In this document: positions 1,430 through 37,934 of the stretch, one piece after another
How positions within the stretch are numbered: the first letter of the stretch is position 1
Layout: each line of letters opens with the position of its first letter
Assembly: GCA_000934665.2 (NCBI GenBank)
Contig: JYFJ02003230.1
Span: 1-44,697 of the forward strand
Source of the DNA: Catajapyx aquilonaris
Taxonomy: Eukaryota
Reading direction: 5' to 3'
Length of the DNA: 44,697 nt
Notes under the pieces: model-generated
Told to the model about the DNA's origin: nothing
Databases searched by the model: none
Seen by the model: only the letters and a program-made list of their open reading frames with translations
Translations under genes and position numbers: made by a program

Positions 1430-2442
1430 CTAATCGACCAGAAATTTCACCACTTCAATATTGGAACACGTTTTCCAAGACTGAGACCTCTTCACTGCTT
1501 TCACATGTTGTACTTGACAAACTGCACACATGCGTCCTTCAGTCCTGGTGAGTCATGCATCATGGCCAAATCCAGAATGTCGAATACAGTTTCCACAGTG
1601 AAACATTTTGTAAGGTGAAGCTCACACAAGGACTTCAGACGAAGGATCTGGTACTTATCGGCTGCTGCCAGGAGCTCCATTGCCACTTCAACCTGCATGT
1701 CTTCTGGGGCTTGATCAGAGTACATGAAGTGTACGAGGCCTTTTACCACTTCAGGTTTGATGTCCTTGATAATGACCTTGCCTGTCATTTTTTCCTCAGT
1801 CTCGTGCTCAAACATGGCTGCAAACACTGGACTTCGAGCACAAAGAATATACTTGTGCACTGGAAACGCTGATCCATTTACCACCAATGTTACATCCATC
1901 ATACTTAAATCAGACGTCAAAGTCTTCTGCACATCTTCAGATAATCCAGGGCCATGAACCTCAGCACTCACTTTCACTTCCTCGTGCTTTCTCTCCAAAA
2001 AAACCTCTCCCTCACAAACCACAGTCAGGGTATCATTAGGAAGAAGGTCGGCTGCCCTCTTTGCTAACCCTTTGACAGAAATAAACTTGGAAATGCCACA
2101 TGAAAGGCAGTTCTTTTTCTTGCCATATATGTTAAAAAATGGACCTTTCGAAAGATCGCTGTTGGTGACACTCTTAATAGAGAACTTTGTCGATGCTGTT
2201 ATCGCATCACCAGCTAGATCAGGAAGGTAGTTGAGGATAAGGGAGAGATGACCTCTATCTTCCTTTCTCTTGCCATTGGGATGAAGCTCCATCGTCCACT
2301 CTCTTGGTTCAGGTCCACCAGAAGTAAATGGTTGTGATATACTTTTGTTCTCTGCTTCTAATGCTTTATATTTTCCTATAGTCCACTTGAAGTAAAATGG
2401 TTGAGTTTCTTGAGTAGAGATCATATGTTGGACATGAGCCAT
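1430..2442 (-). CDS. SPOP-like MATH-BTB protein copy 1; 313-aa ORF (1501-2442) shortened by a 2-bp insertion near the C-terminus, ancestral stop at 1430-1432
   Basis: MATH motifs (FKWTI..Y, W.MELHPNG, HLSL, LLPNDTLTV.CE) and BTB motifs (VHKYILCARSPVFAAMFEH, LLAAADKY.I.RLK..CE). The shifted frame continues VKAVKRSQSWKTCSNIEVVKFLVD*, matching the paralog ends. Confidence 0.9.
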
Positions 2443-2959
2443 TTCTCACGTGATGAGCTGTAGGTGGAAGGATCATGTTATTAATGACCAATTACCTGCA
2501 AATGCAGGAATTAAACAACATGGAGAGCTGCCCAGAGTTAACTACTTCAACAACAGAATGAGGAACTTCCAGTCAAGCACACATACATTTCAATTATTGT
2601 TCTTTGTTGAAATAAAATATCCCATGAGACTTAAGTGTGCAGCATATGCATGACTCTAATAATTACAGTAATGTTGGCCATAAACAACCACAGTCTCAGT
2701 CAGCAGGATCCAAAAATAAGGGCTTTTTTTGTTAAATCAATTAATAAGTTCCTCAAGCAAAATATGAATTTGCCACATGTCAAGTATTACACTGAATCCA
2801 CACAGTTGAAGTGATGTGTAGCATACCCTGTTGTATTCCATGCTGAGGTGTACTGTATTACTCTGAGGCACACCTGTGTTGATTATGTCAGTACTTTTTT
2901 TTTCTTGTCATAATACTCCATACATAATGCAATATAACAACTTTATATACATAGTGTAT

Positions 2960-4260
2960 ATACATATGGACATTCAGATAGGATTTTAAAGTAATACTAA
3001 TTACAACAATTTATTATTTAAATTAACTCGTCTCCAAAAAATGTCGGATGCCACATTCAATAAACTTAAAATAATGCCCTGCATACCACTGTACTACAAA
3101 TTAAATCCAAAAATTATTGTAAGTTACTGTTAAAACCACACATGACATTCAAGAGACAAGCTTTGATTAATCTGAAATTTGGTTGACTCCACTTCAAGAC
3201 AGCTTGAATTTGGTACTCCAGTGTACACTTTTCAGTGGAGTGGTTAACCCCTTGGTTTGACACTTGCAGGCCATGTGGACATGCATGTGACGACAAGAGA
3301 GGCCAATTCGCCAACAATGGAGGCTTCTGACCATTATATTGGTGACTTCTTGTCCCCTTTACACCCATCTCTTGTTCTTTAACTGGTCTTTTGCACCCTT
3401 TGAAATCTGGCAGGCACACAGCAACTTAGGTAACCTGATATCTGGTGTAATAATTCTTACAATGCTCTCTCACTGCTCATAGTACACTGGGACCAGAATA
3501 AACGGGAAGTCAACAAAGCATGTGAATCCTCTCTAATACACTCACCAGTGGACACCAAACACACCAGACCACAGCTAGTCCTTTGGCAGTCACCAGAAAT
3601 GATCCGTCCTGCCTGCTGCCATCCTGGAAGAAAAGAGGATGCGAGTGAAGTGGTCGTGAGCTTGCTGTATTCCAGTGCACTGTACCTGAACCTCTGTATG
3701 AACACTGCGAGATGCACCACAGACACGTGCATATGTATAAGTATGGCTGGCAACGTGATAATAGGTGTGTGAGAAGTCACAGACTCAGATCTTGTTATCT
3801 GGATCACAGAGGAAATCAAAAAGAAATAATTCCTCAGAATGGCTTGCTGGGCAGGTGGAAATTAATTCACTGTAGGACACTTTTACTGTTTCCTGGATAC
3901 AATATATGTTGTTTTGGTGTCCAGGGGTTTGTTTGGAATGCCAAGGGAGTTCTGCATTGGCTGTCCTATTAGACGGATGTCTTGTGGCTTCGTCCCTATA
4001 GTATAGTGTATCCTGCAAGCTGTTTTGTAAAATACAATATAATATTGTGTGTCGTCTGTGCAAAGAAAGTTCTTGACTATTCCTTCTCTAGTTGAACAAC
4101 CCTGGCGAGCATTGGTTGCTTCAGTGCTCCCCTGATTTCAATAAAAATGTGATGAACAAATGTTTCCCATATGAAGATGGTGCAGCATTAATTTACAACC
4201 AAAGGACACGCTCATTACCATAATTTCTAAAATTAAAAATTAATATGCAACAAGATTACT
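2960..4260. repeat. Segmental duplication of the non-coding upstream region; paralogous to ~6895-8520
   Basis: Collinear shared blocks, e.g. GATGCCACATTCAATAAACTTAAAAT (~3047 and ~7325), CTAATACACTCACCAGTGGACAC (~3533 and ~7763), CCATAATTTCTAAAATT.AAAATTAATATGCAAC (~4219 and ~8488). Confidence 0.85.
3540..3800 (-). promoter_or_regulatory. Shared 5'UTR cassette, copy B (for MATH-BTB copy 1)
   Basis: Acceptor CAG 3624-3626, exon 3546-3623, donor GTGAGT 3540-3545. A second acceptor at 2458-2460 lies just upstream of the ATG. Confidence 0.6.
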
Positions 4261-4633
4261 TCTTTATGGACCACCAAGTGAGGGCTTGTTTTTAACAAGT
4301 GATGATAACAGTTAGGTTGCAGATCTCTTGAATGGATTGATTAAAATGGCTAGAATGTGCACTCACATGCACCAATGTCAAAGCCAAATAAAGCCCCAAC
4401 CTTCACGCCAAGACTACACTGGACTTTGCATTCAACACAAGCGCAAGGGTTGCTGACAAAAATGATTATTTCCGGTGTCCATTGTTAGGGGAATTAATTT
4501 AGGCCAAGACACACCCTCTGCAGATGTGATCTAATTTCCTAAACCGCTTATACTTGTACAGTACAAGTAGGGAATACAATGCAATACATTAAAACAATAT
4601 CTGAAACAAGTTATCCTGTACTAATCAAATGTA

Positions 4634-5644
4634 CTAATCAACCAGAAATTTCAATGTTTCGACATTGGTACACTCTTTCCAAGACTGAGACTCCTTCACG
4701 TCTTTCACATTGGACTTGACAAACTTCACACACTCTTCCATCAGTTTTGATGAGTCATGCATCATGGCCAAATTCAGAATGTCTAGTACAGTGTCCACAT
4801 GCAAACATTTTGTAAGGTGAATCTCACACAAGGACTTCAGACGTAGAATCTGATACTTATCGGCAGCTACCACGAGTTCCATTGCCAACTCAACCTGCAT
4901 GTCTTCTGGTGCTTGATCAGAGTAAATGAAGTGTACCAGGCCTTGCACCACTTCAGGTTTGAAGTCCTTGATGATAACCTTGCCTGTCCTTTTTTCTTCA
5001 GTCTCATGTTCAAACATGGCTGCAAACACTGGGCTTCGAGCACAAAGAATAAACTTGTGGACTGGAAACACTGACCCATTTACCACCAATGTTACATCTC
5101 TACTTGAATTTGACTTCAAAGCCTGCTGCACATCTTCAGATATGCAAGGGCCATGAACCTCAACATCCTCTTTCACCTCCTCATCCTTTCTTTCCAACAT
5201 GACCTCTAGCTCACACACTACAGTCAGGGTATCATTAGGAAGGAGGTCAGATGCCCTCCTTGCCAACTCTTGGACAGAAATAAATTTAGATTTACCCCAG
5301 GCTAGGGAGCTGTTTTCCTTTCCATATACATTAACAACTCTGGCTGTTGAATAGTCATTGTTGGTGGCACTCTTAATAGAGAACTTTCTTGATGCTGTGA
5401 TGGCATCACCAGTTTGATCAGGGCAGTAGATGAGGTAAAGTGAGAGATGACCACTAGAATCCTTACGAGCACATTTGGGATGAAGCTCCATCATCCACTT
5501 TCTTATCGGTTCAGACCCACCAGTAGTAAATGGCTGGGATATACTTTTGCCCTCCTCTGCTAAAGTGCTATATTTTTCTATAGTCCACTTGAAGCAAAAT
5601 GGTTGAGTTTGTAGAGCAGAGACCATATGTTGGACATTAGACAT
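4634..5644 (-). CDS. SPOP-like MATH-BTB protein copy 2 (336 aa, intact, intronless CDS)
   Basis: Complete MATH, BTB and BACK-like tail: HLSLYL, WGKSKF, VHKFILCARSPVFAAMFEH, AADKYQILRLKSLCE. Confidence 0.93.
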   Translation of the reverse strand: MSNVQHMVSALQTQPFCFKWTIEKYSTLAEEGKSISQPFTTGGSEPIRKWMMELHPKCARKDSSGHLSLYLIYCPDQTGDAITASRKFSIKSATNNDYSTARVVNVYGKENSSLAWGKSKFISVQELARRASDLLPNDTLTVVCELEVMLERKDEEVKEDVEVHGPCISEDVQQALKSNSSRDVTLVVNGSVFPVHKFILCARSPVFAAMFEHETEEKRTGKVIIKDFKPEVVQGLVHFIYSDQAPEDMQVELAMELVVAADKYQILRLKSLCEIHLTKCLHVDTVLDILNLAMMHDSSKLMEECVKFVKSNVKDVKESQSWKECTNVETLKFLVD

Positions 5645-6958
5645 TTCGCAGTTGGTGAGCTGTAGGAGGAAGGATCACTACATTAATATATTATATTATT
5701 ACCAATTATTTCTTGCAAATGCCGGAAGTAAACAGGACATAATACAATTTTTACATAATTACATAATTGACATTTACAATTGAAAATTGACAATGAAAAT
5801 TGACAATTACATAATTGAAGTAGATACCGCACAGAGAAATATTTCACTGGACATTTCATTCGCGTAAAATTGCTTTTCACTGAAATATTTCATTAATGAA
5901 CATCATGGCAATGGCACAGAAAGCATGAAAGTGTACATGATGTGACTAAAAAGTTCAGTGAATATTCAGATATCACAAAATTCAATGCATTCAATAAGTT
6001 TTAGCATGTGCATGGACATTCAGGTACATGTCTGGAAGTGCCTCCTAGCATGGAGTACGCCTGGCCACAACTGCACTTCCAGCGCAGCCATTCTAGAATA
6101 GTCTGCATGAGGTGGCATCAAACAGCTAAGTTCTGATTCAAATGAAAGGAAATGGTTGCAAAGACGAAATGCTGATCAAAGTGTAAAGGAAGGACACTGC
6201 AACCATAAAATGTGCAAATGATTGGTTTACCCTAATTTAAAGCAGAACTTAGTGTTAGTGTTGCATTGTTGCTCCATTGCTGTTCAACACCACCGCTCAC
6301 ACAGATTGCGGTCAAATGACTGCAGCAACAGTATATTTGTAGCCGCCACTCATACTCTATGCCAGATGGATGTTAGTGCTCATGCTCAAACTTGTTGCAT
6401 GGACAAAATTCGAGACATCTGAACATCCACCTAACTTTTTAGCCACACCACTTATGTCTAGTAGGTTGAAATTTTACAATGTCCACCCTTGACCCTGAGT
6501 GAAACCTTGACTTGCTCATTACCTGGGCCTACACAACCATGCAATTCCAGCTGTCATAATAAATTATGAAGTGCACTCCAAGCCCAATCCAAGTATGCTG
6601 ATCACTTGTTATAAAATATTTTGCTTGAAGCTGTTATTTGTGTATAGACCAGTGCTTATTTCTGGCAATATTTGTGATAACTAACAACAACCCTGACACT
6701 TGAGACACCCTGTGTACAAGCTTAAATGGTCCGCAAATAATTAATTAATAGCCATTCCAACAAGAATAAGTTATGCTATGACTTGATTTGGTTGTTAAGC
6801 ACGGAAAATGAACAATGCAAAAGGACAGGCTTCCAGCCCTTAAATAACAACAAAACTGTAATGGCATCTGAATGGTGATAATGCATGAAATAAGTACATA
6901 GACATTCAGATAGCATACAAATGACAATAACTCAACATTTAAATACTCATGAATACAA

Positions 6959-7296
6959 GGGAAGGCGGAGTGGCGCTGCGGTAACTTATGCGCCCACGGA
7001 TGGAAGAGTTTTGGGTTCAATCCCAAGCCCGGGCATTCCCCCCTTTCATCTCGTACGGAGTTCAGGGTCATCTCCAGCTTCGTCTAGGGTGGGATTTTCA
7101 ATAAACGAACCACCCGGGGGAGCTCACAAAATGACCATAGCAACGACATTGCACATCCCCTCCCAGTCACCCTGCCTTTGGACCAGGGCTCTTCGTTGTC
7201 CAAATTAATATACATCTTGGCAAATAAAGGTCCATGTCAAAACCTCAGCTGAGGTACGTCACTATACCCAATTATTATTATTATTATTATTATTAT
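6959..7296 (+). mobile_element. tRNA-derived SINE
   Basis: A-box-like TGGCGCTGCGG, B-box-like GGTTCAATCCC, (ATT)n tail, 15-bp TSD TACTCATGAATACAA (6944-6958 and 7297-7311). A related copy lies at 41442-41793. Confidence 0.85.
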
Positions 7297-7769
7297 TACT
7301 CATGAATACAAAAAAAATATGGTTGATGCCACATTCAATAAACTTAAAATCATGTGCTGCGAGCTACTGTACTATAAGTTAAACCACAAGACTGTACTTT
7401 TAGAATCACACATATGACACTCAAAAGACAAGCTTGTTTAACCAGTTTTTTAAAAGTCACATCACGACAGCGTGAATATTCCAAGTTTGACACTTGCATG
7501 GCCATGCTGACATGCATGTGAAGACAAGAGAGGCCAAATTCACCAACAATGGACAAGGCTGCTGGCTACGTACTGGTGGCTTCTTGTCCCCTTTTACAGC
7601 CATCTCTTGTCTTGTCTTTTTCAGACTTTGAAACCTGGCAGGCATACAGCCATGTAGGTAACCTAGCATCTGTCATAATGATTCTCACAATGCTGCCTCA
7701 TATTGCTCATAGTGCATTGGGACCAGAATAAACATGAAGACATCAAATCAAGTGAATCCCTTCTAATAC

Positions 7770-8010
7770 ACTCACCAGTGGACACTAAAATCACCAGACC
7801 ACAGCTAGACTTTGTCATTTGCCATTCACCAGAAAGGATCCATCCTCCTGCCGCCACCCTGGAAGTAATAAAGATGATGCGAGTAAGATGGTCATGAACT
7901 AGCCCTATATATTCCAGTGCACTGTACCTTCACTTCTGTACGAACACTGCCAGACACACCAGATGTAACTATGGCTGGCGACGTAATGACAGGCGTGTCA
8001 GAGTTCAGAG
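7770..8010 (-). promoter_or_regulatory. Shared 5'UTR cassette, copy C (for MATH-BTB copy 2)
   Basis: Acceptor CAG 7859-7861, exon 7776-7858, donor GTGAGT 7770-7775. Confidence 0.6.
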
Positions 8011-9688
8011 ACTCACAGTTTGGTATTTGACCAGCAGAGGAGCTCAAAAAGATATTCCTTGGAATGGTTCTGTTGGGCAGGCAGCAATTTATTTATTACA
8101 AAACTGTAGTGTCCATGCAACAGGACACTTTACTTTGCCTGGACACTGGGCTGAACAAAATGTTGTTTTGGTGACCAAGGGTTTGTTTGGAATGTCAAGT
8201 GAGTTCTGGATTGGTCGTCCTCCTATGCATATGCACGTCTTGTTGCTTTGTCCTGATTATTGGCTCTGAAAGTAGTTTTATTTTGTTTTTTAAGGTACGA
8301 TTGGAATAGATGTGTGCACGAAAAAAGTTACAGATTATTCCTTCGAGTTGAACAACCTTGGTTGGCATCGGTTACTTCAGTAATTTTATTTATCATTCAT
8401 TTAGGCTAGTTGCTCTCCTGATTTCAACAAAAATGTGGCGAACAAAATAATGTTTCCTATGTGAAGACTAGATGAACTTGTTCATTTCCATAATTTCTAA
8501 AATTCAAAATTAATATGCAACCAGCTATAGTCTCCAGATATGTAATTACATAATTTTGAAAAATGCTTTTCATGCTACACTTTGGATCACATTATTTTGG
8601 AATACAGTTTCTACAATAACACAATTCCCCATACACAAATGCCTCGGTGTAGATTTTTGTGAGCGGTTGTCTTTCATGCTACTGAAATTATTTAATTTCA
8701 TAAAGTCCGACCCGACACGGTACCTAGAAATAGAACATTACCACAAATGATCCATCATTTTTTGAATCATAATTTCTCATCAAACATTTCTTCACCCATT
8801 TTTATACACCACAAAGTGTATAAGTTCACTGTGACTCTTTTCCTGATCTGTCTGACATTTACATAAATATTAGTCATTAGTCACACCAAATGTGTATCAC
8901 AAAAATATCCAGACTTTAACCAATTACAGTATCATTAACATGCTTTTTTTTACCTTTGAAAGGATGGAGCACTCATTTTTGCCAATGTAGACAAGAGTCC
9001 TTAAAATTTTTTAAAATGCGGTAGCTTTAAAATTACATTGTGGATGAGAAACTACTGCATGAAAATATCCACCACTAATATTAGGCGGATTACATGCATC
9101 TTGTGAGAAAAATATTTTGAGTTTATCCAAAATGCTGAAAAAACAAAACAAAAATCACTGGAACACTGCGTATATTGGACAAACACAAACGAGTCATTTC
9201 CTCAAATATCTAACTTCCAACTTTGGATGGACATGCCGAGCCCTGTGGATCCTATGCTTAAGTGCCTTTTTTTGTAGGCTACAGTCAACTGCTGAACCAC
9301 AGAACTCTTAAGAGTCATGATTCAAATGGTTAGAATATGCACTTGCATGCACTAGTGAGGTTTAAATAAATCACACCAGCATCTTAATCTGTGCAAAACT
9401 GCACAACATTTTATTCTTACAACTTCAATTACATTTACTTGTCCATTTTGATAAAATAATTGAATAATCAGTACAAAATGACACTAACATCTAAATAACA
9501 AATAACGAAACTTCAAAGGCAAACAAATGACCGATATTAATTAAATCGGTAACCACTCAGTTGGTGTTTGCACACTCTACATGAACACATGCTTAAAAGG
9601 ATTGGATATCTGATTAAATATGTTATTTTTGATGGCGGTTATGTAAGTGATCAATGATCCTGTATGTTGCTAATCCATTTACTACATA

Positions 9689-9923
9689 CAGGGTGTTCCA
9701 AGTTTGTAGGTCGCTTTTAGTTATCACTGATATAATATGAAGTAGTTATTTTCGTGTAACTTGTTGTGCCCCGATCCAGGTGCCCCATTACTCGCAGGTG
9801 GTTGAATGTAGCAGCAGGTAGCAGTGTCTATATGATAATGCACCTGATTAGGGGCACAACAAGCTACAAAATAATAACAGCTTTGAGCATAACTGAAAGG
9901 GTCCACAAACTTGGACCACCCTC
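9689..9923. mobile_element. Tc1/mariner-type MITE
   Basis: TA|CAGGGTGTTCCAAGTTTGT ... ACAAACTTGGACCACCCTC|TA terminal inverted repeats (2 mismatches). Internal sequence shared with ~29095-29297. Confidence 0.7.
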
Positions 9924-10062
9924 TATATATATTTTTACATCCGTGCTCTAGTTGATGTATCCCCCTACCACAGGGTAAGTAAATAATAAATAATCAAACG
10001 AGCAATTCAATCCATTACATTCAATCAATGTCAGCAACAAGTGTTATCCTACAAAATGTACA

Positions 10063-10113
10063 CTAATCAAACAGAAACTTCAGTATTTCAACATTTCTGC
10101 AATCTTTCCAAGA
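10063..10113 (-). pseudogene. 3'-terminal remnant of a minus-strand MATH-BTB gene
   Basis: Reads SWKDCRNVEILKFLFD*, matching the paralog C-termini. The 3' flank at ~9320-10060 resembles the flanks of copies 1 and 2. Confidence 0.8.
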
Positions 10114-10624
10114 TGTGCAGCAACATTTGAAGTCAACCTGGGGCGATGTAACATTGGTTGCAAATGATGGGTCAGAGTTTCCGGTGCACCAGTTTATTAT
10201 TTGTGCTCGAAGTCCAGTCTTCGCCGCCATGTTTGAGCACAAGACTAAGAAAAAAATGACAGGCAAGGTCATTATAAAGGACCTGAAGCCTGAAGTGGTA
10301 AAAGGCCTCGTACACTTCATTTACTCTGATGAAGCCCCAGAAGACATGCAGGTTGAGTTGGCAATGGAGCTCCTGAAAGCGGCAGATAAGTATCAGATTC
10401 TTCGTCTGAAGTACTCGTGTGAGCTTCACCTTACAAAATGTTTGACTGTGGAAAAAGTACTGGACATTCTGGATTTGGCCATAGTGCATGACTCACCAAA
10501 ACTGAAGGAAGAGTGTTTGAAGTTTTTCAAATCCAATGTGAAAGAGATGAAGGGGTCACAGACTTGGAAAGAGTGCACCAATGTTGAAGTCATGAGGATT
10601 CTTCTTGATTACTGTGTCCTGTAA
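10110..10624 (+). pseudogene. 5'-truncated, BTB-only MATH-BTB fragment (copy 3)
   Basis: Starts at the (E)DVQQ linker without ATG or MATH domain. The frame is open through BTB/BACK to ...LLDYCVL*. Confidence 0.85.
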
Positions 10625-10779
10625 GTCAGGGCTTACTGTATAGCTTGCAGCTCCACACAATAGCGTGCAGTTCTAAAAGCCAAAATTTGTGCAGTCCTGA
10701 ATGTAGTCAGCCGAAAAAAATGCCAAATCATGAAACACAAAAGCCAGTATAGTAACCATGGAATCAGTTCTATTGCCAC

Positions 10780-11020
10780 ACGCAGAGCCATCTATTTATA
10801 CTTGAACTCCTCCAGCCAGTGTTGACACTTGTAATCCGCATTCGGAACACATCTCCGTCCAAGACTGGTGAGACGGCAGCACCGGTGTCGCAGTGTTCCT
10901 TACAGAGGTGCAGGTACAGTGCACTGAAAGAGCTAGTTCATGACCATCTTACTCACTTTCGCTCTCCTTTCCAGGATGGTTGCAACAGCACGTATGGCTT
11001 GAAAATAATTATACCTGCAG
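10780..11020 (+). promoter_or_regulatory. Shared 5'UTR cassette, copy D, with most of the second intron deleted (for copy 4)
   Basis: GCCATCTA at ~10787, AGGTACAGTGCACTG, CTCCTTTCCAG acceptor ending 10974, then CCTGCAG acceptor at 11020. Confidence 0.55.
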
Positions 11021-11035: not shown

Positions 11036-12091
11036 ATGGCTGGCCACCAACACATTTTCTTGACTCAAGAAAGTCAACCATTTGACTTCGACTGGACTAT
11101 TAAGAACTACAATAGAATAGCAAAAAAAACTATGTTACATCTAAGCCATTAACTTCTGGTGGACCTCTACCAAGAAAGTGGGTGGTGAAGCTTTTTCCCA
11201 ATGGCTATGGTAAGGAACATCATGGTCATATCTCCCTTTACGTATACTACTGGCCTGATCAAGCTGATGACAAGGTCACAACATCACTTAAGCTCTCAAT
11301 TAAGAGTGCCACCAACAATGATTATTCAAAGGGTCCAGTTGATCACGTATTTACATGTATCAGGAAAGAGAGCTTCCTTAACATGGGTTATAGACGTACC
11401 AAGAAAAAAACCTGCCTCGCCTGGAGTTATCCTAAATTTATTTCCAACCAAGAGTTAGACAAGATGGCATCTGACCTCCTTCCTAACGATACCCTTACCT
11501 TGATTTGTGAGGGAGATTTCTTCTTGGAAAGGGAGGGAGTGAAGGAGAGGACTGAAGTATGTGGCCTTGGATTATCTGAAGATGTGCAGCAATATTTGAA
11601 GTCAAGGAAGAGAGATGTAACATTGGTTTCAAATGGGAAAGGGTGTCCAGTCCACAAGTTTATTCTTTGTGCTCGAAGCCCAGTGTTTGCAGCCATGTTT
11701 GAACACGACACCAAAGAGAACAGGACAGGCAGGGTTTTCATCAAGGACTTCAAGCCTGTGGTGGTGAAGGGCTTCGTACACTTCATGTATTCTGATCAAG
11801 CCCCAGAAGACATGCAGGTTGAGTTGGCAATGGAACTCCTTTTAGCTGCAGATTAAGTATCAGATTCTTCGTCTGAAGTCCTTGTGTGAGCTTCACCTTA
11901 CAAAATGTTTGACTGTGGAAAAAGTACTGGACATTCTGGAACTGGCCATGATGCATAACTCGTCAAGACTGAAGGAAGAATGTCTGAAGTTTATCAAGTC
12001 CAATGTGAAAGACGTGAAGGGGTCTCAGTCTTGGAAGAAGTGTAACAATATTGAAGTGATTAGGATTCTCTTTGATTACTGTCTTCTGTAG
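11036..12091 (+). pseudogene. SPOP-like MATH-BTB copy 4 with two frameshifts
   Basis: ATG 11036 (MAGHQHIFLTQESQPFDFDWTIKNY). One base is missing in the A8 run at 11122-11129, and an extra T at ~11853 turns GAT AAG into GAT TAA. The remainder aligns to paralogs through ...LFDYCLL*. Confidence 0.85.
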
Positions 12092-15489: not shown

Positions 15490-15860
15490 GAGACGGAAGC
15501 CCTTATTCGGGAGTCCTGCTGTCCGTACAGTATACCGTGAGGTGAAGGTACAGCGCACTGCTAGAGCTAGTTCATGACCCGTCTATTTACATCCGATTTA
15601 CTTCCAGGGTGACCACACAGCAGGACGGATCCTCGATGGTGACTGGAAGAGGACAAGTCATGATCTGGTGAATCTGGTGTAGAGTGAGTGTGGACATACT
15701 AATTTTTAGGTAAGTGAAGCATCATGTAATACCGGTAATGACTTCAGTGTACCAATGGAATTGTCTCTTCATGTGTGGAGAAAGTAATCTACAGGATTAT
15801 TCCTCACTATGTTGTTGAAGTTCGGTTGGGATAACATCATTATTATTATTATTCCTGCAG
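15490..15860 (+). promoter_or_regulatory. Shared 5'UTR cassette, copy E (for copy 5)
   Basis: GAGGTGAAGGTACAGCGCACTG, TTTACTTCCAG acceptor ending 15607, donor GTGAGT at 15684 (or GTAAGT at 15710), start-proximal acceptor TTCCTGCAG ending 15860. Confidence 0.6.
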
Positions 15861-15879: not shown

Positions 15880-16890
15880 ATGGCTCACGCCCAACACATC
15901 GTCTTGACCCAACAAACTCAGCCATTCTGTTTCAAGTGGACTATTGAAAAATATAGCTTTTTAGTGCAGAAGAACAATATTACATCTGAACCATTCACTA
16001 CTGATGGACCTCGACCAAGAAGGTGGGTGATGGAGCTCTATCCCAGAGGCGATGGTAGTGAATGTAGTGGTCATCTCTCACTTTTTCTCACCTATTGTCA
16101 TGATCAAGCAGATGATGAAGTCACAACTTCAAGAAAGTTCACTATCAAGAGTGCCACCAACAATGACTATTCATCAGGTCCAACTGTTCAGGTGTATGAC
16201 AGGAAAACGAACTCCATTACCTGGGGTTATCCTCAATTTATTACGACCAAAATGTTGGAACAGAGGGCATCAGACCTCATTCCTAATGGTACACTTACCT
16301 TGATTTGTGAGGGAGAGATCTTGTTGGAAAGAGAAGGAGTGAAGGAGAGCACTGAAGGTTGTGGCACTGGTTTATCTGAAGATGTGCAGCAATATTTGAA
16401 GTCAGTGAATAGAGATGTAACATTGGTTGCAGATGGGTTCGAGATTCCAGTGCACCAGTTTATTCTTTGTGCTCGAAGCCCAGTGTTTGCAGCAATGTTT
16501 GAGCATGACACGGAAGAAAAAAGGACAGGCCAGGTCATGATCAAGGACCTCCAGCCAGAGGTGGTGCAAAGCCTTGTTCACTTCATGTACTCTGATCAAG
16601 CCCCAGAAGACATGCAAATTGAGTTGGCAATGAAACTCCTTGTAGCTGCAGATAAGTATCAGATTCTTCGTCTGAAGTACTCGTGTGAGCTTCACCTTAC
16701 AGAATGTTTAACTGTGGAAAAAGTACTGGGCATTCTGGAATTGGCCATGATGCATGACTCACCAAGAGTGAAGGAAGGGTGTTTGAAGTTTGTCAAATAC
16801 AATGCTGAAGAGCTGAAGGAGTCTCAGGCTTGGAAAGAGTGCACCAATGTTGAAATCATGAGGATTCTTTTTGATTACTGTGTTATGTAG
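15880..16890 (+). CDS. SPOP-like MATH-BTB protein copy 5 (336 aa, intact)
   Basis: Complete MATH (HLSLFL, WGYPQF) and BTB (VHQFILCARSPVFAAMFEH, AADKYQILRLK). Confidence 0.93.
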   Translation: MAHAQHIVLTQQTQPFCFKWTIEKYSFLVQKNNITSEPFTTDGPRPRRWVMELYPRGDGSECSGHLSLFLTYCHDQADDEVTTSRKFTIKSATNNDYSSGPTVQVYDRKTNSITWGYPQFITTKMLEQRASDLIPNGTLTLICEGEILLEREGVKESTEGCGTGLSEDVQQYLKSVNRDVTLVADGFEIPVHQFILCARSPVFAAMFEHDTEEKRTGQVMIKDLQPEVVQSLVHFMYSDQAPEDMQIELAMKLLVAADKYQILRLKYSCELHLTECLTVEKVLGILELAMMHDSPRVKEGCLKFVKYNAEELKESQAWKECTNVEIMRILFDYCVM

Positions 16891-22309: not shown

Positions 22310-22311
<2 letters not shown>

Positions 22312-27826: not shown

Positions 27827-28819
27827 AACCTGTAAGAAACCATCAAATCCCAAATGTTGTCTTTATTTGCAATGCATTTCAGCAGCCAGTTTTGATATGA
27901 TTCCACAAAATTTTCATTTTAGCTTCAGTTGTTGATGCACTAAGATGTGAAATGCACATATTTTCAGCAGTCACAAACACACTGTAACAGGAAATGTAAA
28001 GTCATGTCTTAACCTTACTCTGAAAACTACCTCTAATCAGCTACCCTGATTCTGATGGTCTCCACATGATCATTACAATGTACAACACTAGTTGGACCCA
28101 TTGCCATTTTTTTTTTTTTTTTTTGCATACAGTACATGTGACATTAATGCTAATTTTTTGTCCAACTCTCAGTTCAGTGAATTTGTGAAACAACATTTAA
28201 TGCAGTATCAATTCTGCTATTCACAGGGTTTTCCTTGCTGGGGACTGGAAAATGCTGCTTGTTTCTGCATTACACAGGTTCTGCTATACTGGACAAAAAA
28301 AAACATATCTTGCTGTAAGAACCATAGTGTAAGTGAGGGAGATAAAATATGCTTTTCAAAAATTCAGTGTTGGATATAAAATGATCACTCAGAAATTTAC
28401 TCAGTTGAGTTGTTACCTGACCTACAAAGTACCCACACCGCGGTCTGGATCCAGACCGCGATGCAATTTTGTCCGGACTGCGATGATATACATGACAGTT
28501 TGAAATAGTATTAGAAATTACTAATTCACGATTTTTTGAAAAAAAGTGATACCAATTTCATCAAATACACACCCATTCAAATCTCCCACATTCACATAAG
28601 CTCGTGTGTCCTTGAACCCCCCAAAAACCGCCCTGTATGGCTTCTTCACCTTGTGCTATTGAAATCCCCCCCCCCCCTATAACAATTTAGGTCAACGCAA
28701 CATCGTGATGTGACAGTGTGTCCGCCACAGCAATCAGGGGCCAGTCACATCATTTGGGAATGCTACAGCAGTGACAATGGCTGTGGAAGCACAATGCAAT
28801 TGTTTCATTCCTGCAGGTC

Positions 28820-30884: not shown

Positions 30885-31913
30885 CTACATCAAACTTTCC
30901 TGAACATCAAACAGATCCAAAAGAACCTTCAAAACATCTACATCATCACATTCTTTCCAAGACTTAGACTCTTTCACCTCCTTCACATTGGACGTAACAA
31001 ATTTCAAGCACATATCCTTCAGCACTGGTGTGTTGTACAATGTGGCACACTTCAAAAGGTGCAGTACATTTTCTACAGTCACAAATTTGACCAGATGACA
31101 TTCGCACATGGACTTCAGCCGAAGAACCTGATACTTATCAGCAGCTGCCAACAATTCCAGAGTTAATTCATCAGTCATGCTTGCTGGAATTTGATCAGAG
31201 TACATGAAGTGTATGAGGCCTCGCACCACTTCAGGCTTCAAGTCCTTGATAATGACCTTGCCTGTCCTTTTTTCGTCAGTGTCATGCTCAAACATGGCTG
31301 CAAACACTGGGCTTCGAACGCAAAGAATAAACTTGTGCACTGGAATCTCTGACCCATTTACCACCAATGCCACATCCTTACTCAAAGTTGACTGCAAAGC
31401 ATTCTGCACATCTTCAGATAATTGAGGGCCACTAACCTCAGTACTCACTTTCACTTCCTCATGTTTTCTCTCCAAAAGGACCTCTCCTTCACAAATCAAG
31501 GTAAGGGTATCATTAGGAAGGAGGTCAGATGCCGACCTTGCCAACTCTTGGATGGAAATAAATTTAGAATAGCCCCAACCGTCGGGCCAACTATGATACA
31601 CCTTAACAAATGGGCCAATACTATAATCATTGTTGGTGGCACTCTTAATAGAGAATTTCCATGATGCTGTGACATCATCACCATATTCATCAGGAAGGTA
31701 GGCGAGGAAAAGTGACAGAAAACTTCTACATTCCTCACTATTGCCTTTGGGATGAAGCGTCATCACCCACATTCTTGGGGTAGGTCCCCCAGTCGTAAAT
31801 GCTTCGGAGGTAATTGTCTTCTCCTCTGCAAATGAGTTATATTTCTCAATAGTCCACTTGAAGCAGAATGGTCGAGTATGTCGACTCAAGACAATGTGTT
31901 GGGCATCCGACAT
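30885..31913 (-). CDS. SPOP-like MATH-BTB protein copy 6 (342 aa, intact)
   Basis: Complete MATH (FLSLFL, DGWGYSKF) and BTB (VHKFILCVRSPVFAAMFEH, LLAAADKYQVLRLKSMCE). Confidence 0.93.
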   Translation of the reverse strand: MSDAQHIVLSRHTRPFCFKWTIEKYNSFAEEKTITSEAFTTGGPTPRMWVMTLHPKGNSEECRSFLSLFLAYLPDEYGDDVTASWKFSIKSATNNDYSIGPFVKVYHSWPDGWGYSKFISIQELARSASDLLPNDTLTLICEGEVLLERKHEEVKVSTEVSGPQLSEDVQNALQSTLSKDVALVVNGSEIPVHKFILCVRSPVFAAMFEHDTDEKRTGKVIIKDLKPEVVRGLIHFMYSDQIPASMTDELTLELLAAADKYQVLRLKSMCECHLVKFVTVENVLHLLKCATLYNTPVLKDMCLKFVTSNVKEVKESKSWKECDDVDVLKVLLDLFDVQESLM

Positions 31914-32489
31914 TTCTCACTTGCTGAGCTATAGGAGGAAGGATCATGATGAGTTAGAAAAATGTGGTCGGAAAGTGTGCATATAATTTCGATACATGTG
32001 CGAGTACAACACACTGTAATATTCTGTAATTGAAAGCAATACACCGTAATACATACATGTAAACCTTGCCTTTTGGATTAGCCTTTTCATGTATTTGAAG
32101 CAAATATCATGTTCTACGAGGTTCATGCAAGTGTGCTGTGCATCATACCTCACTACAATGCCAGCATAGGGTATAGCCACCAGATCATGACAAATAAAAA
32201 CTGGTTGACTTGGACTTACTTGTACATTCGCTTAAAGAATTTCCTTTCGACATAAAGCGAAGAAATTAGCCTCCAACAGATGTGCTGCCTCCCCCTGATG
32301 CAATGACTCGCACTCCCCTAGCTAGCACCTCCATTGGAGGCTAATTTCTTCGCCTCATGTGGAAAGGAAATCCTTCAACCAACTGTACACCGGCACATAC
32401 CGTAAATCTTCTGAACAAATCAGTGATTGTAATTTCTTGTTTTACGTGCCATACGCTGCAGGTCACAACTTGTCCGTACCAGGAATACG

Positions 32490-33009: not shown

Positions 33010-33518
33010 TAAATAACATTTCTGTGGCAAAATTATATGGGAAAAACAGAAGACTGGTAATGAACAAAAAATAGGAATACCTGCGCTACACGAACATCGC
33101 ATCTGAATCATATTGTACTACACTCTACACGCAGTGCTTCCCAAACTTGGGGGGCCATGAACATAATTTTTGGGAGCAGGGTAACAAATAATTTTTAAAA
33201 TTTTGTAAAAATTATTTGTTACCCTGCTCCCAAAAATATATCTCCTGAAAAATATGGCTGTAACACCAATAAGCAAACCCAGGTGAAAGTCTCGTTCTTG
33301 TATTGCACCAAAGGTATTGCACTACCGAGTTTGAGTGGATTTATCACCCATGAGTGCAAGCTCCAGGACCCATTTCCTTGACATAGATCCACCAGTCGTA
33401 AATATTAGGGATGTAATTTTATCCTCCAGTACTAATGCATATTATATTTTTCTATAATCCACTTGAAGTAGAATGGCCTAGTTGGTTGAGTCCAGACCAT
33501 TTGTTGGACGTCAGACAT
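33010..33518 (-). pseudogene. Collapsed MATH-BTB pseudogene (copy 7): 5' ~170 nt of CDS plus 3' flank, body missing
   Basis: ATG 33518 reads MSDVQQMVWTQPTRPFYFKWIIEKYN, then a 2-bp insertion, then ...KITSLIFTTGGSMSRKWVLEL. 33010-33110 is the reverse complement of the copy-4 3' flank (12100-12200). Confidence 0.75.
33132..33240. mobile_element. hAT-type MITE fragment with an internal palindrome
   Basis: Begins CAGTGCTTCCCAAACT, a typical hAT/Charlie-like terminus. TTTTTGGGAGCAGGGTAACAAATAATTTTTA pairs with TAAAAATTATTTGTTACCCTGCTCCCAAAAA. Confidence 0.5.
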
Positions 33519-33910
33519 TTCTTTGTTGATCAGAAGGAAGAAAGATTATCATGATGCGATTAAGATATTTCTTCCAAGTGCAGAAATTAAGAAAGCCACG
33601 TTCCTGCCCAAGTGTTAACAACTCCAACAGCACGGTGGGGAATATTCTGTGATGGATTTTTCCCTGAAGTAGGCCTATTGCTTGCACATTGCCATTTGCT
33701 GATTCTATAATTTTATGCATACAGGACTGGAGTATGGCCTCCTACATGGCATATATTATAGAGTGGTGATAGAGGTAATGTGTTCTATGGTTAAGGGGCG
33801 GTTGCACCAAGCGTGGTATATGATAAACCAGCCGTTATTTAGGAAAATCCGTTAGGGCATGTTAAACGGTCACCATGTAGAGCAGTTGAGTGTAAGGCTT
33901 TACAGACCTA

Positions 33911-35869: not shown

Positions 35870-36030
35870 CAGTCAGGTCCGGTCCTGCGACTGCTGCCAC
35901 CCTGGAAGTAAATAGGGCATGTGAATAAGCTGGTCATACTACTCATAATCTATTACAGTGCACTGTACCATACAGGGAACACAGCAAAACACACCAAAAA
36001 AATAACATGTGCAAATGACACTAGGCCTTG
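35870..36030 (-). repeat. Orphan cassette, copy J, with no associated CDS
   Basis: CTGCTGCCACCCTGGAAGTAAA...TGGTCAT...CAGTGCACTGTACC...CACTAGGCCT. 35665-35718 also matches the copy-6 intron at 32174-32224. Confidence 0.6.
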
Positions 36031-36917
36031 ACACCTTATTGTGACACAATAGTATGTTAGTTAATCAACAGGCTTATGTATTGCCCCACGTGGCATTTTG
36101 GCTGAAAATATTTTCTCATCATTCGAAAGCAAACAAAAAATCTTTTTTAGTCTCTCTTTTCTTGCCTTGCAACAATAAACAGCATTATGATATTATCATG
36201 TAATAAAGAAAGTGACATTAGTTTGGCTAGTGGGTGTCACACTGATTGCGTGATGGTAATGAACCACTGTACACTGCAGAGTACAAAAATATTATCATAA
36301 CACTTTCGTGACACACTACAAAAATTGTTAAAACCGGTAACAAAGGAATGAAATTGTATCAACTGGCGACCACTTCATTAGGTATCAAAACTGCACAGGG
36401 TGATGTGAAAAAATAAAAAATCAAGTGTAGAAGAAAACGCAAAAATAGAGCCCAATACTTTGTGCTGTCTAGACTGGAGTTTGCGGTCAGACCAAGGGTG
36501 ACAAATCCATCAATTCTTCCCAAACTACTGGGTCTATCAATTTGTGTTCATAAGTATATCCTCTACTGTACAGTACGCACTGTACCTCATATGTGTTCAG
36601 TGGTCCTGATATTATCTCCAGCTTGATACGTAGTGAGCTGCAATCAGAGCAATGGAGCTTTTGGGTCTGGCTGAAATGCGGACTACACAAAGTTGGGGAA
36701 AATAAAAGTGAGAGAGCTGGTTGAGGGAATGGGAAAGGGAGGGGCTGAGAAGAGACAAATTGTAAAATATAGATTAGTTTGTGACATTTGGCAATAAGAT
36801 GTATGTCAGGAAATAAAAGTAGAAACATTTATTTCATTTCGCACGTTTGAAATTTTGACATTCATGTTACAGTATTTTTATTCCGCGTATAAATTATCTT
36901 TAAGTCCAAAAATCTGC

Positions 36918-37934
36918 TTACAGATCCAAAAGACACTTCAACACGTCCACATCAACACATGCTTTCCACGACTGAGACTCCTTCACCTTCTTTAAGTTGA
37001 CTCGGACAAATTTCACACATGCTTCTGTCAGATTAGGTGAGTCATGCATTATGGCCAAATTCAGAATGTCTAGTACAGTTTCCACAGTTAAACCTTTTGT
37101 AAGGTGAAGCATACACAAGGACTTCAAACGAAGAATCTGATACTTATTAGCAGCTACCAGGAGTTCCTTTGCCATCTCAACCTGCATGTCTGCTGGGGCT
37201 TGATCAGAGTACATGAAGTGGATGAGGCCCTGCACCACTTCAGGCTTCAAGTCCTTGATAACGACCTTGCCTGTCCTTTTCTCTTCAGTCTCATGCTCAA
37301 ACATTGCTGCAAACACTGGGCTTCGAACGCAAAGAATAAACTTGTGCACAGGAAACTTTGACTCATCTGCCACCAATGTCACATCAGTACTCAAAGTTGA
37401 CTGAAATGCATTCTGCACATCTTCAGATATGTGAGGGCCACAAATCTCAGCATGCTCGTTCACATCCTCATGTTTTCTCTCCAAAAGGACCTCTCCTTCA
37501 CAAATCAAGGTAAGGGTATCATTAGGAAGGAGGTCAGATGCCCTCCTTCCCAACTCTTGGATGGAAAAAAATTTAGGATAGCCCCAGCAGCTAGGAGTGT
37601 CGCCGTTTTTTCCCCTGAACACCTTAAGAAATTGGCTACTACTACAATCATTGTTGGTGGCACTCTTAATAGAGAATTTACTTGATGCTGTGACATCACC
37701 ACCATATTCATCAGGAAGGTAGGTGAGGAAAAGTGACAGAAAACTTCTACATTCCTCACTATTGCCTTTGGGATGAAGCACCATCACCCACTTTTTTGGT
37801 TCAGGTCCACCAGAAGTGAATGGTTCAGATGTAATTTTGTTCTCCTCGCCTAACATACTATATTTCTCAATAACCCACTTGAACGAGAATCGTCGAGTTT
37901 GTTGAGCAAATATCCACTGTTGCACATCAGACAT
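36918..37934 (-). CDS. SPOP-like MATH-BTB protein copy 8 (338 aa, intact)
   Basis: Complete MATH (FLSLFL, CWGYPKF) and BTB (VHKFILCVRSPVFAAMFEH, AANKYQILRLKSLC). Confidence 0.93.
   Translation of the reverse strand: MSDVQQWIFAQQTRRFSFKWVIEKYSMLGEENKITSEPFTSGGPEPKKWVMVLHPKGNSEECRSFLSLFLTYLPDEYGGDVTASSKFSIKSATNNDCSSSQFLKVFRGKNGDTPSCWGYPKFFSIQELGRRASDLLPNDTLTLICEGEVLLERKHEDVNEHAEICGPHISEDVQNAFQSTLSTDVTLVADESKFPVHKFILCVRSPVFAAMFEHETEEKRTGKVVIKDLKPEVVQGLIHFMYSDQAPADMQVEMAKELLVAANKYQILRLKSLCMLHLTKGLTVETVLDILNLAIMHDSPNLTEACVKFVRVNLKKVKESQSWKACVDVDVLKCLLDL

Follow-up and report, generated by a model that had tools for sequence, protein, structure and literature searches.

The canonical Cul3 adaptors with a MATH-BTB-BACK domain order are human SPOP and Drosophila Roadkill (HIB). 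Lineage-specific expansions of Cul3 adaptors are also known, for instance the MATH-BTB (BATH) family of C. elegans (Thomas 2006, Genome Res 16:1017, as summarised in PMC5392922). According to this summary, positive selection acts on sites of the BATH substrate-binding domain, the cullin-binding domain is conserved, and infection with Orsay virus or microsporidia induces MATH genes in C. elegans. The rodent Tdpoz and Rtdpoz genes, as portrayed in PMC2724483, are clustered full-length and truncated MATH-BTB copies, which possess intron-free coding sequences and non-coding 5' exons and are described as retrocopies.

Here, we describe a MATH-BTB array of Catajapyx aquilonaris, located between positions 1430 and 37934 of the window, that is, the whole 44,697-nucleotide stretch (contig JYFJ02003230.1) that was analysed. 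The array shares with SPOP and Roadkill the domain order and fold, the AAMFEH core of BTB, the phi-x-E Glu, the dimer-interface hydrophobics and the aromatic groove floor. However, identity to SPOP and Roadkill is only 25-32%, the SPOP degron readers R70, K129 and D130 as well as F102, M117, S119 and K134 have given way to other residues that vary between copies, phi is Thr rather than the Met given for SPOP, the basic C-terminal NLS is absent, and the genes are multi-copy with one coding exon. Judged by these sequence features, the array genes are therefore not SPOP orthologues. Like the BATH family as summarised, the array is expanded and combines a selected substrate domain with a conserved cullin-binding domain, but it belongs to a different phylum and consists of eight loci in one 45-kb window, known from sequence alone. 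The clustering of full-length and truncated copies, the uninterrupted coding sequences and the putative non-coding 5' exons are reminiscent of the rodent genes as portrayed; in contrast to retrocopies, the array lacks poly(A) in the aligned 3' flanks and has a conserved putative splice acceptor upstream of the ATG. In rice and other grasses, an expanded MATH-BTB subgroup, reportedly described by Gingerich et al. in 2007, is said to be clustered and rapidly evolving, its MATH domain being hypervariable and its BTB domain conserved, the same contrast as here, albeit in a plant lineage.

Composition of the array

The array contains four intact open reading frames, two full-length yet frameshifted copies and two fragments (c5 is the reference for numbering):

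1430..2442, minus strand: c1, full-length MATH-BTB-BACK copy, disabled close to the 3' end
4634..5644, minus strand: c2, intact single-exon MATH-BTB-BACK gene, 336 aa
10109..10624, plus strand: c3, 5'-truncated copy, BTB and BACK only
11036..12091, plus strand: c4, full-length pseudogene with two frameshifts
15880..16890, plus strand: c5, intact single-exon MATH-BTB-BACK gene, 336 aa
30885..31913, minus strand: c6, intact single-exon MATH-BTB-BACK gene, 342 aa
33337..33524, minus strand: degenerate N-terminal fragment, about 65 codons, one stop and one frame change
36918..37934, minus strand: c7, intact single-exon MATH-BTB-BACK gene, 338 aa

The original prediction had described six full-length copies over this span. 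The span and all six of its loop strings match the translations exactly, and MATH_2 and BTB are present in all six copies (Pfam), but only four have open frames, and c3 and the fragment at 33337-33524 had been overlooked. Under neutral substitution, the probability that the frame stays open is 0.001-0.005 for each intact gene.

In c1, two extra bases (1505-1506) lead to a premature stop at 1501-1503 and the loss of the final 24 residues; the former frame continues as far as a TAG at 1430-1432. Its terminal branch has an omega of 0.23 in the BTB domain, below 1 at p=0.002, and the disruption is therefore probably of recent date. In c4, one base is missing from an A8 run near 11126-11128 and an extra T is found at 11854, and the branch omega of 0.80 is indistinguishable from 1. 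The region 10444-11600 is covered by contigs of three DNA runs of one sample with zero differences. All 171 homologous codons of c3 are open and its pairwise omega to the other copies is 0.27-0.40, while an in-frame ATG ahead of the AAMFEH motif and a MATH domain upstream are both absent.

Architecture, relatedness and mode of duplication

BACK_BPM_SPOP is listed by Pfam for five of the six full-length copies, but only c1 exceeds the cut-off of 27.4 bits (c2, c6 and c7, 26.2-27.1 bits; c5, 16.6 bits); the c4 reading frame ends ahead of this region. Human SPOP is the HMMER match against the PDB (E=7.5e-43, SPOP residues 30-341). An AlphaFold2 model of c5 has a mean pLDDT of 88.2, and its first ten Foldseek matches are all SPOP, with a TM of 0.82 and an rmsd of 2.1-2.2 A for the BTB domain and a TM of 0.78-0.85 for MATH-peptide complexes. 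In a tree with 41 database relatives, the six copies group together as a single clade (SH-aLRT 100), the stem of which measures 1.36 changes per column, and identity to c5 is 61-64% inside the window and 25-32% for the database relatives. The topology, ((c1,c2),(c4,c5),(c6,c7)), is identical in the MATH and BTB halves and agrees with physical adjacency.

In each of the six full-length copies, the ATG is preceded at a distance of 15-19 nt by a pyrimidine-rich tract followed by YAG (AG at 2458-2459, 5660-5661, 11019-11020, 15859-15860, 31929-31930 and 37951-37952), for example:

15840..15860, plus strand: pyrimidine tract and YAG upstream of c5, a consensus match only

We read this element as the putative splice acceptor of an intron in the 5' UTR. 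Homology between copies stops about 50-100 bp from the coding sequence and no poly(A) tract is seen in the aligned 3' flanks; together with the conserved candidate acceptor, this would fit a gene with only one coding exon that was duplicated in tandem at the DNA level.

Selection on the MATH and BTB domains

The two halves of the genes evolve at different rates. By the Nei-Gojobori method, MATH has an omega of 0.61 and BTB one of 0.34, and the partition model gives 0.78 and 0.34, respectively; rather than being even across the gene, omega is better fitted separately for each domain (LRT 56.6, 3 df, p=3e-12). Since dS is similar in the two domains (0.47 in MATH, 0.39 in BTB), gene conversion does not account for BTB conservation. 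Tested against 1, omega is 0.41 for BTB (p=1e-6) and 0.63 for the whole gene (p=6e-7), and purifying selection thus acts on BTB (omega 0.34-0.41, compared with about 0.7-0.8 for MATH). MATH as a whole is likewise below 1 (p=0.012), while its terminal branches in c6 and c7 have omega values of 1.1-1.2, indistinguishable from 1. For the pair c6-c7, dS is uneven along the gene (0.18 in MATH, 0.84 in BACK), which points to partial gene conversion.

The BTB core VH.FILC, which had been called nearly invariant, is constrained as a domain but departs from this pattern in c1 (VHKYILC) and c3 (VHQFIICA). At the dimer-interface positions named in PMC4910529 (L186, L190 and I217), the four intact genes have L/I, V and I, respectively. 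The phi-x-E motif, in which phi is described as a large hydrophobic residue that contributes to Cul3 binding (PMC3616122), retains its Glu in all six full-length copies and reads T-K-K in c3; phi is Thr in every copy, as in nine of 41 database relatives. As predicted, a basic C-terminal tail or NLS like that of SPOP is absent from all copies.

Codon site models were fitted with home-made code to the six copies of this one genome (four of them intact). M2a is favoured over M1a (LRT 17.6, p=1.5e-4; omega2=3.8 for 5.8% of codons) and M8 over M8a (16.1, p=3e-5), and the comparison of M7 with M8 proposed alongside the original prediction favours M8 (LRT 23.1, p=1e-5), so that about 6-7% of codons fall into a fast class with an omega of about 3-4. 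The signal lies within codons 1-178 (LRT 15.3, p=5e-4, with branch lengths estimated for MATH alone) and is not found in BTB and BACK (LRT 2.06, p=0.36). Twenty codons have an M8 posterior above 0.5, namely 12 in MATH, one in the N-terminus, two in the linker, one in BTB and four in BACK; NEB posteriors are unreliable at six sequences. Only codons 27, 107 and 176 exceed 0.95, and none of these three is among the contact residues published in the source used below.

The peptide-binding groove

The HMMER alignment to human SPOP bears out the earlier by-eye mapping: the variable residue of T(A/T)S-x-K (T/R/L/R/W/S) corresponds to F102, that of SL-x-L (I/Y/Y/F/F/F) to Y87, and the variable loop to residues 124-130, ahead of W131-G132; both residue series agree exactly with the translations. 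F102 is replaced, for instance, by R in c2, W in c6 and S in c7, and the equivalents of R70, M117, S119, K129, D130 and K134 also differ among the copies. Indels in the loop reach 15 residues, the size of the insertion in c4; the loop of c6 is the shortest among the six copies and that of c7 is two residues longer than in c5. The aromatic floor is kept, with Y87 as Y/F (Y in c2), Y123 as Y/F, and W131 and G132 each in five of six copies; the W131 position is Cys and the F133 position Ile in c1, and F133 is K in c2. In nine slowly evolving roadkill/SPOP-like database sequences, the MAFFT-aligned contacts are kept in 7-8 of nine and G132 in all nine, the K129 column being left unaligned by MAFFT in this comparison.

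The ten SPOP-53BP1 contact residues given in PMC8213225 have an omega of 1.52, compared with 0.66 in the remainder of MATH (p=2.5e-4, six copies; p=0.002 for the four intact genes). The youngest intact pair, c6 and c7, differs at six of these ten residues and at 27 of 125 other MATH residues, with a pN of 0.36 at the contacts against a MATH pS of 0.16. Among the 12 MATH codons whose M8 posterior exceeds 0.5, six belong to a set of 15 codons (Y87, F102 and 123-134; Fisher p=4e-4). The original prediction of diversification specifically at the groove holds in part: the groove is faster than the rest of MATH and enriched in fast sites, but the other six fast MATH codons lie outside this set, eight more lie outside MATH, and MATH outside the groove sets itself has an omega of 0.62-0.69. 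Positive selection on the groove was not borne out by the contact and hotspot sets as defined in these sources, which are not significantly above 1 (omega 1.4-1.6 for contacts, p=0.08-0.24), and relaxed constraint is therefore possible. One set does exceed 1 (omega 1.90, p=0.0017), which includes the indel-bearing loop preselected as variable-looking.

Functional interpretation

We hypothesize, and consider it fairly probable, that the array is a lineage-specific tandem family of SPOP-like MATH-BTB-BACK genes, most likely of an arthropod genome, that forms a Cul3 adaptor repertoire with copy-specific degron specificities. The family would turn over by birth and death, having left four intact genes, two recently disabled copies and two fragments. 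The proteins most likely serve, each of them, as substrate adaptors of Cullin-3: the BTB/3-box half, which is under purifying selection, would dimerise and dock Cul3, and the MATH half would offer a groove for peptides. The equivalents of Y87, Y123, W131, G132 and F133 are retained as the aromatic floor of this groove, and the presumed specificity positions (the equivalents of R70, F102, M117, K129 and D130 and the 124-130 loop) vary between copies by residue and loop length. The outcome may be a small set of adaptors that differ in degron specificity and in their targets, which might include the foreign or selfish proteins suggested in the original prediction, and the canonical Ser/Thr-rich motif of SPOP would be read by no copy.

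It is also conceivable, though unlikely, that a useful BTB half is kept, for example for dimerising, while a non-binding MATH groove drifts and the array slowly decays. The contact-set omega of 1.4-1.6 (for contacts as defined in the source used), the loss of the R70, K129 and D130 degron readers in all copies, the frameshifts in two of six copies, the two further fragments and the terminal MATH branches of c6 and c7 are consistent with such relaxed constraint. However, the site models reject an omega of 1 or below for their fast class, the rest of MATH is constrained, open frames are very unlikely under neutrality, and an aromatic floor kept while its neighbours change is unexpected for a dead groove. 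An improbable reading is that the fast sites are an artefact of a misaligned loop, partial conversion, multi-nucleotide mutations or pseudogenes, and that the family consists of fast-evolving but purified paralogues. Partial gene conversion and multi-nucleotide changes, the latter lying outside the models used, can both inflate site tests; the long loop indels, the heterogeneous dS along pairs, the home-made code with its unreliable NEB posteriors and an omega2 that is unstable with four sequences (35-102) all speak for this reading. Against it, the LRT remains significant when the indel loop is left out (10.5, p=0.005), when the alignment is restricted to ungapped columns (17.6), when MATH is given separate branch lengths (15.3) and for the four intact genes only (11.1, p=0.004), stayed at or below 2.55 in every one of 21 simulations based on the fitted M1a, and is accompanied by the same topology in both halves and by a contact-versus-rest contrast that is visible in plain pairwise counts for the published contacts.

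Finally, the proteins could have a non-Cul3 role as BTB heterodimers that modulate the canonical SPOP/Roadkill ligase in a dominant-negative or specificity-changing manner, with the BTB-only c3 as the extreme case. Conserved dimer-interface residues, the Thr at phi, described as the main Cul3-burying position, the absent NLS and the open, constrained frame of c3 would suit such a role, but nine of 41 SPOP-like relatives likewise have Thr at phi, the invariant Glu is retained in the array, the retained groove floor and diversifying rim are left unexplained, and c3, lacking an in-frame start, is a putative gene only, and we regard this role as very improbable. The adaptor repertoire is the reading we prefer. 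An adaptively evolving MATH-BTB expansion is a pattern known already from nematodes, grasses and rodents, of which the array of C. aquilonaris is probably a newly described case.

Organization of the MATH-BTB array

Between 1430 and 37934 of the C. aquilonaris contig, eight homologous loci coding for MATH-BTB proteins or parts of them were located with a stop-to-stop ORF list and a tblastn search of the window with c5; these occupy 36.5 kb and four of them are intact. The loci c1 to c7 are named in positional order, and c5 provides the codon numbering.

Homologous loci of the array (locus, position, strand, state)
c1, 1430-2442, minus, full-length with a frameshift near the 3' end
c2, 4634-5644, minus, intact, 336 aa
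c3, 10109-10624, plus, fragment with BTB and BACK only
c4, 11036-12091, plus, full-length with two frameshifts
c5, 15880-16890, plus, intact, 336 aa
c6, 30885-31913, minus, intact, 342 aa
unnamed fragment, 33337-33524, minus, degenerate N-terminal remnant
c7, 36918-37934, minus, intact, 338 aa

The residue strings quoted in the original prediction of a diversifying MATH-BTB array are each present exactly in the translations. In c1, two extra bases at 1505-1506 lead to a premature stop and the loss of the last 24 residues, and the old frame reads on to a TAG at 1430. As the omega (dN/dS) of its BTB domain is 0.23 and below 1 (p=0.002), c1 appears to have broken recently. The frame of c4 changes twice: an A8 run near 11126-11128 is one base short, and at 11854 there is one T too many. 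In addition, the loop before the WG motif of c4 contains a 15-residue insertion. Three DNA runs of a single sample, possibly the one behind the window's own assembly, each yield contigs that cover 10444-11600 with zero differences, and hence the only conclusion drawn is that an assembler slip does not account for the first frameshift of c4. The DNA-run contigs list no indel at the two remaining break points, though these bins have depth, and one further run of unspecified kind covers repeats only. Summed contig depth over several copies (1400-2441, 4526-5567 and 11299-12340) is about 1.5-3x the flanking single-copy level and the contigs hold a few alternative letters (1660, 1663, 1846, 1848 and 2377), both of which may reflect near-identical paralogues or alleles elsewhere in the genome. 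The 171 homologous codons of c3 are all open, with pairwise omega values of 0.27-0.40 against the other copies. No start codon lies in frame, and its phi-x-E motif reads T-K-K, without the Glu. The fragment may have been truncated recently, or it may serve as an exon joined to another 5' exon.

Similarity between copies fades about 50-100 bp beyond the coding sequence. A pyrimidine-rich tract followed by YAG is found 15-19 nt 5' of the ATG in all six full-length copies (c1, c2, c4, c5, c6 and c7), which also share a block of some 40 conserved nt 3' of the stop. From these features we infer a single coding exon behind a predicted 5'-UTR intron, and copying by DNA-level duplication instead of retroposition. 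A retrogene origin of the Tdpoz type was rejected, given the conserved pyrimidine tract and YAG upstream of the six ATGs and the aligned 3' flanks, in which no poly(A) tract was seen. The topology ((c1,c2),(c4,c5),(c6,c7)) is common to trees of the MATH and the BTB halves; physical neighbours are thus sisters.

Other features of the window are as follows.

Other features of the window (position, strand, description)
2963-3483, 6610-7651, 9736-10256 and 14946-15466, high-copy repeats between gene copies; contig word depth hundreds to thousands vs a baseline of about 20-40 in the DNA runs
3036-4254 and 7312-8524, copies of one element, 69% identity
12770-14329, minus, intact ORF of 519 aa, lying between c4 and c5 within the array
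19939-20628, plus, protein-kinase-domain match (Pkinase, E=1.5e-9)
20878-21195, plus, weak protein-kinase-domain match (E=0.008)
23020-23397 and 23565-23929, inverted repeat pair of about 378 bp, 92% identity, about 170 bp apart; resembles a foldback or MITE-like element
25062-25412, minus, separate ORF with a hAT C-terminal dimerisation domain (E=4e-14)
25658-27862, minus, 734-aa ORF with two BED zinc fingers
43676-44011, minus, HMG-box exon, 74-76% identity to insect DSP1/HMGB; the window's most conserved gene

Between c5 and c6, the BED and hAT ORFs make up one transposase of the hAT/ZBED type, which a frame change or an intron has split; the two kinase ORFs, between c5 and this transposase, probably belong as exons to a single divergent kinase gene. 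The 519-aa ORF has no Pfam match even at E values up to 5 and no homologue among 5.8 billion proteins; in language-model features it resembles arthropod ionotropic receptor (Lig_chan) clusters, with a match of 0.97, and we read it as probably a single-exon gene for a very divergent IR-like receptor.

SPOP-type architecture and database relatives

The full-length copies possess the features of SPOP-type adaptors, namely an N-terminal MATH domain (TRAF-like beta-sandwich), a BTB/POZ domain and 3-box/BACK helices. In Pfam searches, MATH_2 was recognized in all six (E=3e-13 to 1e-20), as was BTB (E=1e-15 to 3e-27), and BACK_BPM_SPOP scored 16.6-29.7 bits, with the cut-off of 27.4 bits exceeded in c1 only. 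Searched against PDB sequences with HMMER, c5 aligns to residues 30-341 of human SPOP (E=7.5e-43). Its AlphaFold2 model (mean pLDDT 88.2, with helices up to residue 334) has SPOP as its first ten Foldseek matches in the PDB, with TM scores of 0.82 for the SPOP BTB domain (rmsd 2.1-2.2 A) and 0.78-0.85 for SPOP MATH-peptide complexes.

No close relative was found in a protein collection of 5.8 billion: the search returned 101 hits among 758 candidates, full-length hits reach at most 34% identity and local, BTB-only matches at most 43%, and the named hits are for the most part from spiders, ticks and insects. Taken with the HMG-box exon and the IR-like ORF, these hits make an arthropod the most likely host. 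In a MAFFT alignment the other copies of the window are 61-64% identical to c5, and 41 database relatives 25-32%. A quick maximum likelihood search over 47 rows groups the six copies in a single clade (SH-aLRT 100), whose stem measures 1.36 changes per column.

In BTB, the four intact genes carry L/I, V and I at the equivalents of L186, L190 and I217, hydrophobic residues of the SPOP BTB dimer interface (PMC4910529). For the BACK-dimer residue Y353, ungapped extension and the MAFFT column give conflicting positions. The phi-x-E motif, which we take to be M233-E235 in SPOP, reads T-x-E in each full-length copy, with Glu kept and Thr at phi. In this Cul3-binding motif phi is a large hydrophobic residue (PMC3616122), and the 41 database relatives have M (28), T (nine), L (three) or N (one) there.

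The predicted substrate-binding groove

The groove, the counterpart in MATH of the peptide-binding cleft of SPOP, was mapped by HMMER alignment of c5 to SPOP. The original prediction had placed three variable sites in the groove by eye, and this alignment agrees with every assignment: the variable residue of SL-x-L is the Y87 equivalent, the x of T(A/T)S-x-K(F/L)(S/T)I that of F102, and the loop before the WG motif corresponds to residues 124-130. Ten SPOP residues line the 53BP1 peptide site, namely R70, Y87, F102, M117, Y123, K129, D130, W131, G132 and F133 (PMC8213225).

Groove positions (SPOP residue, c5 codon, residues in c1/c2/c4/c5/c6/c7 for the ten 53BP1 contacts)
R70, 52, E/E/K/E/T/V
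Y87, 69, I/Y/Y/F/F/F
F102, 85, T/R/L/R/W/S
M117, 100, G/A/G/G/G/S
S119, 102
Y123, 106, Y/Y/F/Y/Y/F
F125, 109
K129, 113, L/L/L/I/D/S
D130, 114, S/A/A/T/G/C
W131, 115, W in five of six copies
G132, 116, G in five of six copies
F133, 117, I/K/Y/Y/Y/Y
K134, 118

Across the six copies the aromatic floor of the groove (the Y87, Y123, W131 and F133 equivalents, together with G132) is kept, if only roughly. R70, K129 and D130, which in SPOP form hydrogen bonds to the degron Ser/Thr, are replaced in every copy, and differently between copies, and the loop that separates the equivalents of Y123 and W131 differs in length as well. In nine slow-evolving roadkill/SPOP-like database sequences the human residue is present at aligned contact positions in seven to eight of nine (G132 in all nine), the K129 column being unaligned in MAFFT. 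Judged from these residues, the groove looks like one retained with re-tuned specificity, not an abandoned surface.

SPOP carries a nuclear localisation signal (PMC9690554). No copy has a basic cluster at its C-terminus (the ends read ...KFLVD, ...FDYCVM, ...DVQESLM and ...KCLLDL), in line with the original prediction. Assignment of the copies as SPOP/Roadkill orthologues was rejected, since the residues contacting the SBC degron are not conserved and the basic C-terminal NLS is absent.

Selection on domains, sites and the groove

The whole-gene omega of 0.63 lies below 1 (p=6e-7), and separate values per domain fit better than a single one (LRT 56.6, p=3e-12).

Selection by domain
Nei-Gojobori dN/dS: MATH 0.286/0.472 = 0.61; BTB 0.130/0.388 = 0.34
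omega, shared-dS partition model: MATH 0.78; BTB 0.34; BACK 0.74; remaining codons 0.84
omega tested against 1: MATH 0.71 (p=0.012); BTB 0.41 (p=1e-6)

Because dS is alike in the two domains, purifying selection rather than homogenisation explains the invariant BTB core, and gene conversion was rejected as its cause (dS 0.39 in BTB vs 0.47 in MATH). In neutral simulations at terminal-branch dS each intact ORF stays open in only 0.1-0.5% of 5,000 trials, which argues that the four intact genes are maintained by selection. No terminal branch departs significantly from the background omega, the pseudogene c4 (omega 0.80) included.

Site models were fitted with self-written GY-type codon models with F3x4 frequencies. 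In the comparison of M7 with M8 that the original prediction called for, M8 is favoured, and models with a positively selected class are also preferred in the other runs except that on BTB and BACK.

Site-model comparisons (data, models, LRT, p)
six copies, 336 columns, M2a vs M1a, 17.6, 1.5e-4
six copies, 336 columns, M8 vs M7, 23.1, 1e-5
six copies, 336 columns, M8 vs M8a, 16.1, 3e-5
codons 1-178 (N-terminus, MATH, linker), M2a vs M1a, 15.3, 5e-4
BTB and BACK, M2a vs M1a, 2.06, 0.36
ungapped columns only, M2a vs M1a, 17.6, 1.6e-4
Y123-W131 loop removed, M2a vs M1a, 10.5, 0.005
without c4, M2a vs M1a, 6.8, 0.03
four intact genes only, M2a vs M1a, 11.1, 0.004

M2a places 5.8% of codons at omega2=3.8 and M8 7.4% at omega=3.3; in the four-sequence runs omega2 climbs to 35-102, a sign that the data are thin. 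Twenty codons have an M8 posterior above 0.5, distributed over the N-terminus (1), MATH (12), linker (2), BTB (1) and BACK (4), and only codons 27, 107 and 176 exceed 0.95. The twelve fast MATH codons are 17, 27, 45, 71, 73, 85, 99, 107, 110, 111, 113 and 114; in the secondary structure of the c5 model, codons 71 and 73 share a strand with the Y87 equivalent and codon 99 adjoins that of M117.

The hydrophobic-cleft and prostate-cancer hotspot residues (PMC9690554) and the 53BP1 contacts were drawn from papers and are independent of the present alignment.

Omega of groove residue sets vs the rest of MATH (set, n, omega, p for a difference, p for omega above 1; p values are uncorrected and come from several overlapping sets)
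hydrophobic cleft, 5, 1.46 vs 0.69, 0.02, 0.24
cancer hotspots, 8, 1.53 vs 0.67, 0.001, 0.10
53BP1 contacts, six copies, 10, 1.52 vs 0.66, 2.5e-4, 0.08
53BP1 contacts, four intact genes, 10, 1.64 vs 0.64, 0.002, 0.12
Y87, F102 and 123-134, 15, 1.90 vs 0.62, 2.6e-9, 0.0017

The union of cleft and hotspot residues (nine) gives 1.42 vs 0.67. The 15-codon set is partly circular, since it includes the indel loop and overlaps the sites originally chosen by eye. It holds six of the twelve fast MATH codons (Fisher p=4e-4), compared with three among the ten contacts (p=0.04) and two among the hotspots (p=0.15). Between c6 and c7, the youngest pair and both intact, six of ten contact residues differ vs 27 of 125 other MATH residues, with a pN of 0.36 at the contacts and a pS of 0.16 over MATH. 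The positive-selection signal is concentrated in the predicted substrate-binding surface of MATH, and BTB is constrained, as seen in six sequences with self-written models and with a contact-set omega that is not significantly above 1.

Interpretation and precedents

We consider it reasonably likely that the array is a birth-and-death family of predicted Cul3 substrate adaptors, in which the docking half is conserved and the groove that would read degrons diversifies, probably through positive selection. The excess of changes at the groove could also stem from relaxed constraint, a reading that we regard as unlikely and that is kept in play by the contact and hotspot sets defined from the literature, whose omega is not significantly above 1. 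That the positive-selection signal is an artefact appears less probable still, given the robustness runs and the null simulation: in all 21 data sets simulated under the fitted M1a the LRT was at most 2.55, indicating that the code does not inflate the statistic under its own null. For a role as regulator or decoy without Cul3, the Thr at phi and the BTB-only c3 are the sole hints, and we give it the lowest probability of these explanations.

The family set out here is a lineage-restricted, physically clustered MATH-BTB clade with pseudogenes, like the nematode BATH, grass MBTB and rodent Tdpoz expansions. The array resembles the MATH-BTB expansion of grasses. It also resembles rodent Tdpoz, which consists of clustered intronless copies (PMC2724483). 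Nematode MATH-BTB and F-box families follow the same pattern (Thomas 2006, as cited in PMC5392922), and fast-evolving receptor families of nematodes are induced by infection with viruses and microsporidia (PMC5392922). In the literature on arthropod MATH-BTB arrays we found no analysis of selection, which does not prove that none exists; the nearest is a gene-count mention, the listing of a SPOP-family expansion in a parasitoid wasp genome (PMC6873472).

By analogy, the cluster might belong to an 'adaptive' repertoire of arthropod ubiquitin-ligase receptors, with the grooves of the predicted Cul3 adaptors in an arms race with foreign or selfish proteins, although we hold this to be a rather doubtful extension. 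The opponents could then be viral, microsporidian, transposon-encoded or meiotic-drive factors, and c3 might serve as a regulator or decoy. If true, the array would parallel, independently and in an arthropod, the intracellular pathogen response built on MATH-BTB and F-box proteins in nematodes.

Since the pattern is already established in other phyla, the value of a further example is incremental unless targets are found. Lineage-specific, fast-evolving families of substrate receptors are candidate players in innate immunity inside the cell or in defence of the genome. In the C. aquilonaris cluster the scaffold of the groove is kept and the degron-reading positions turn over, with broken and intact copies side by side, and such a small, well-delimited arthropod cluster would be tractable for asking what these adaptors target.
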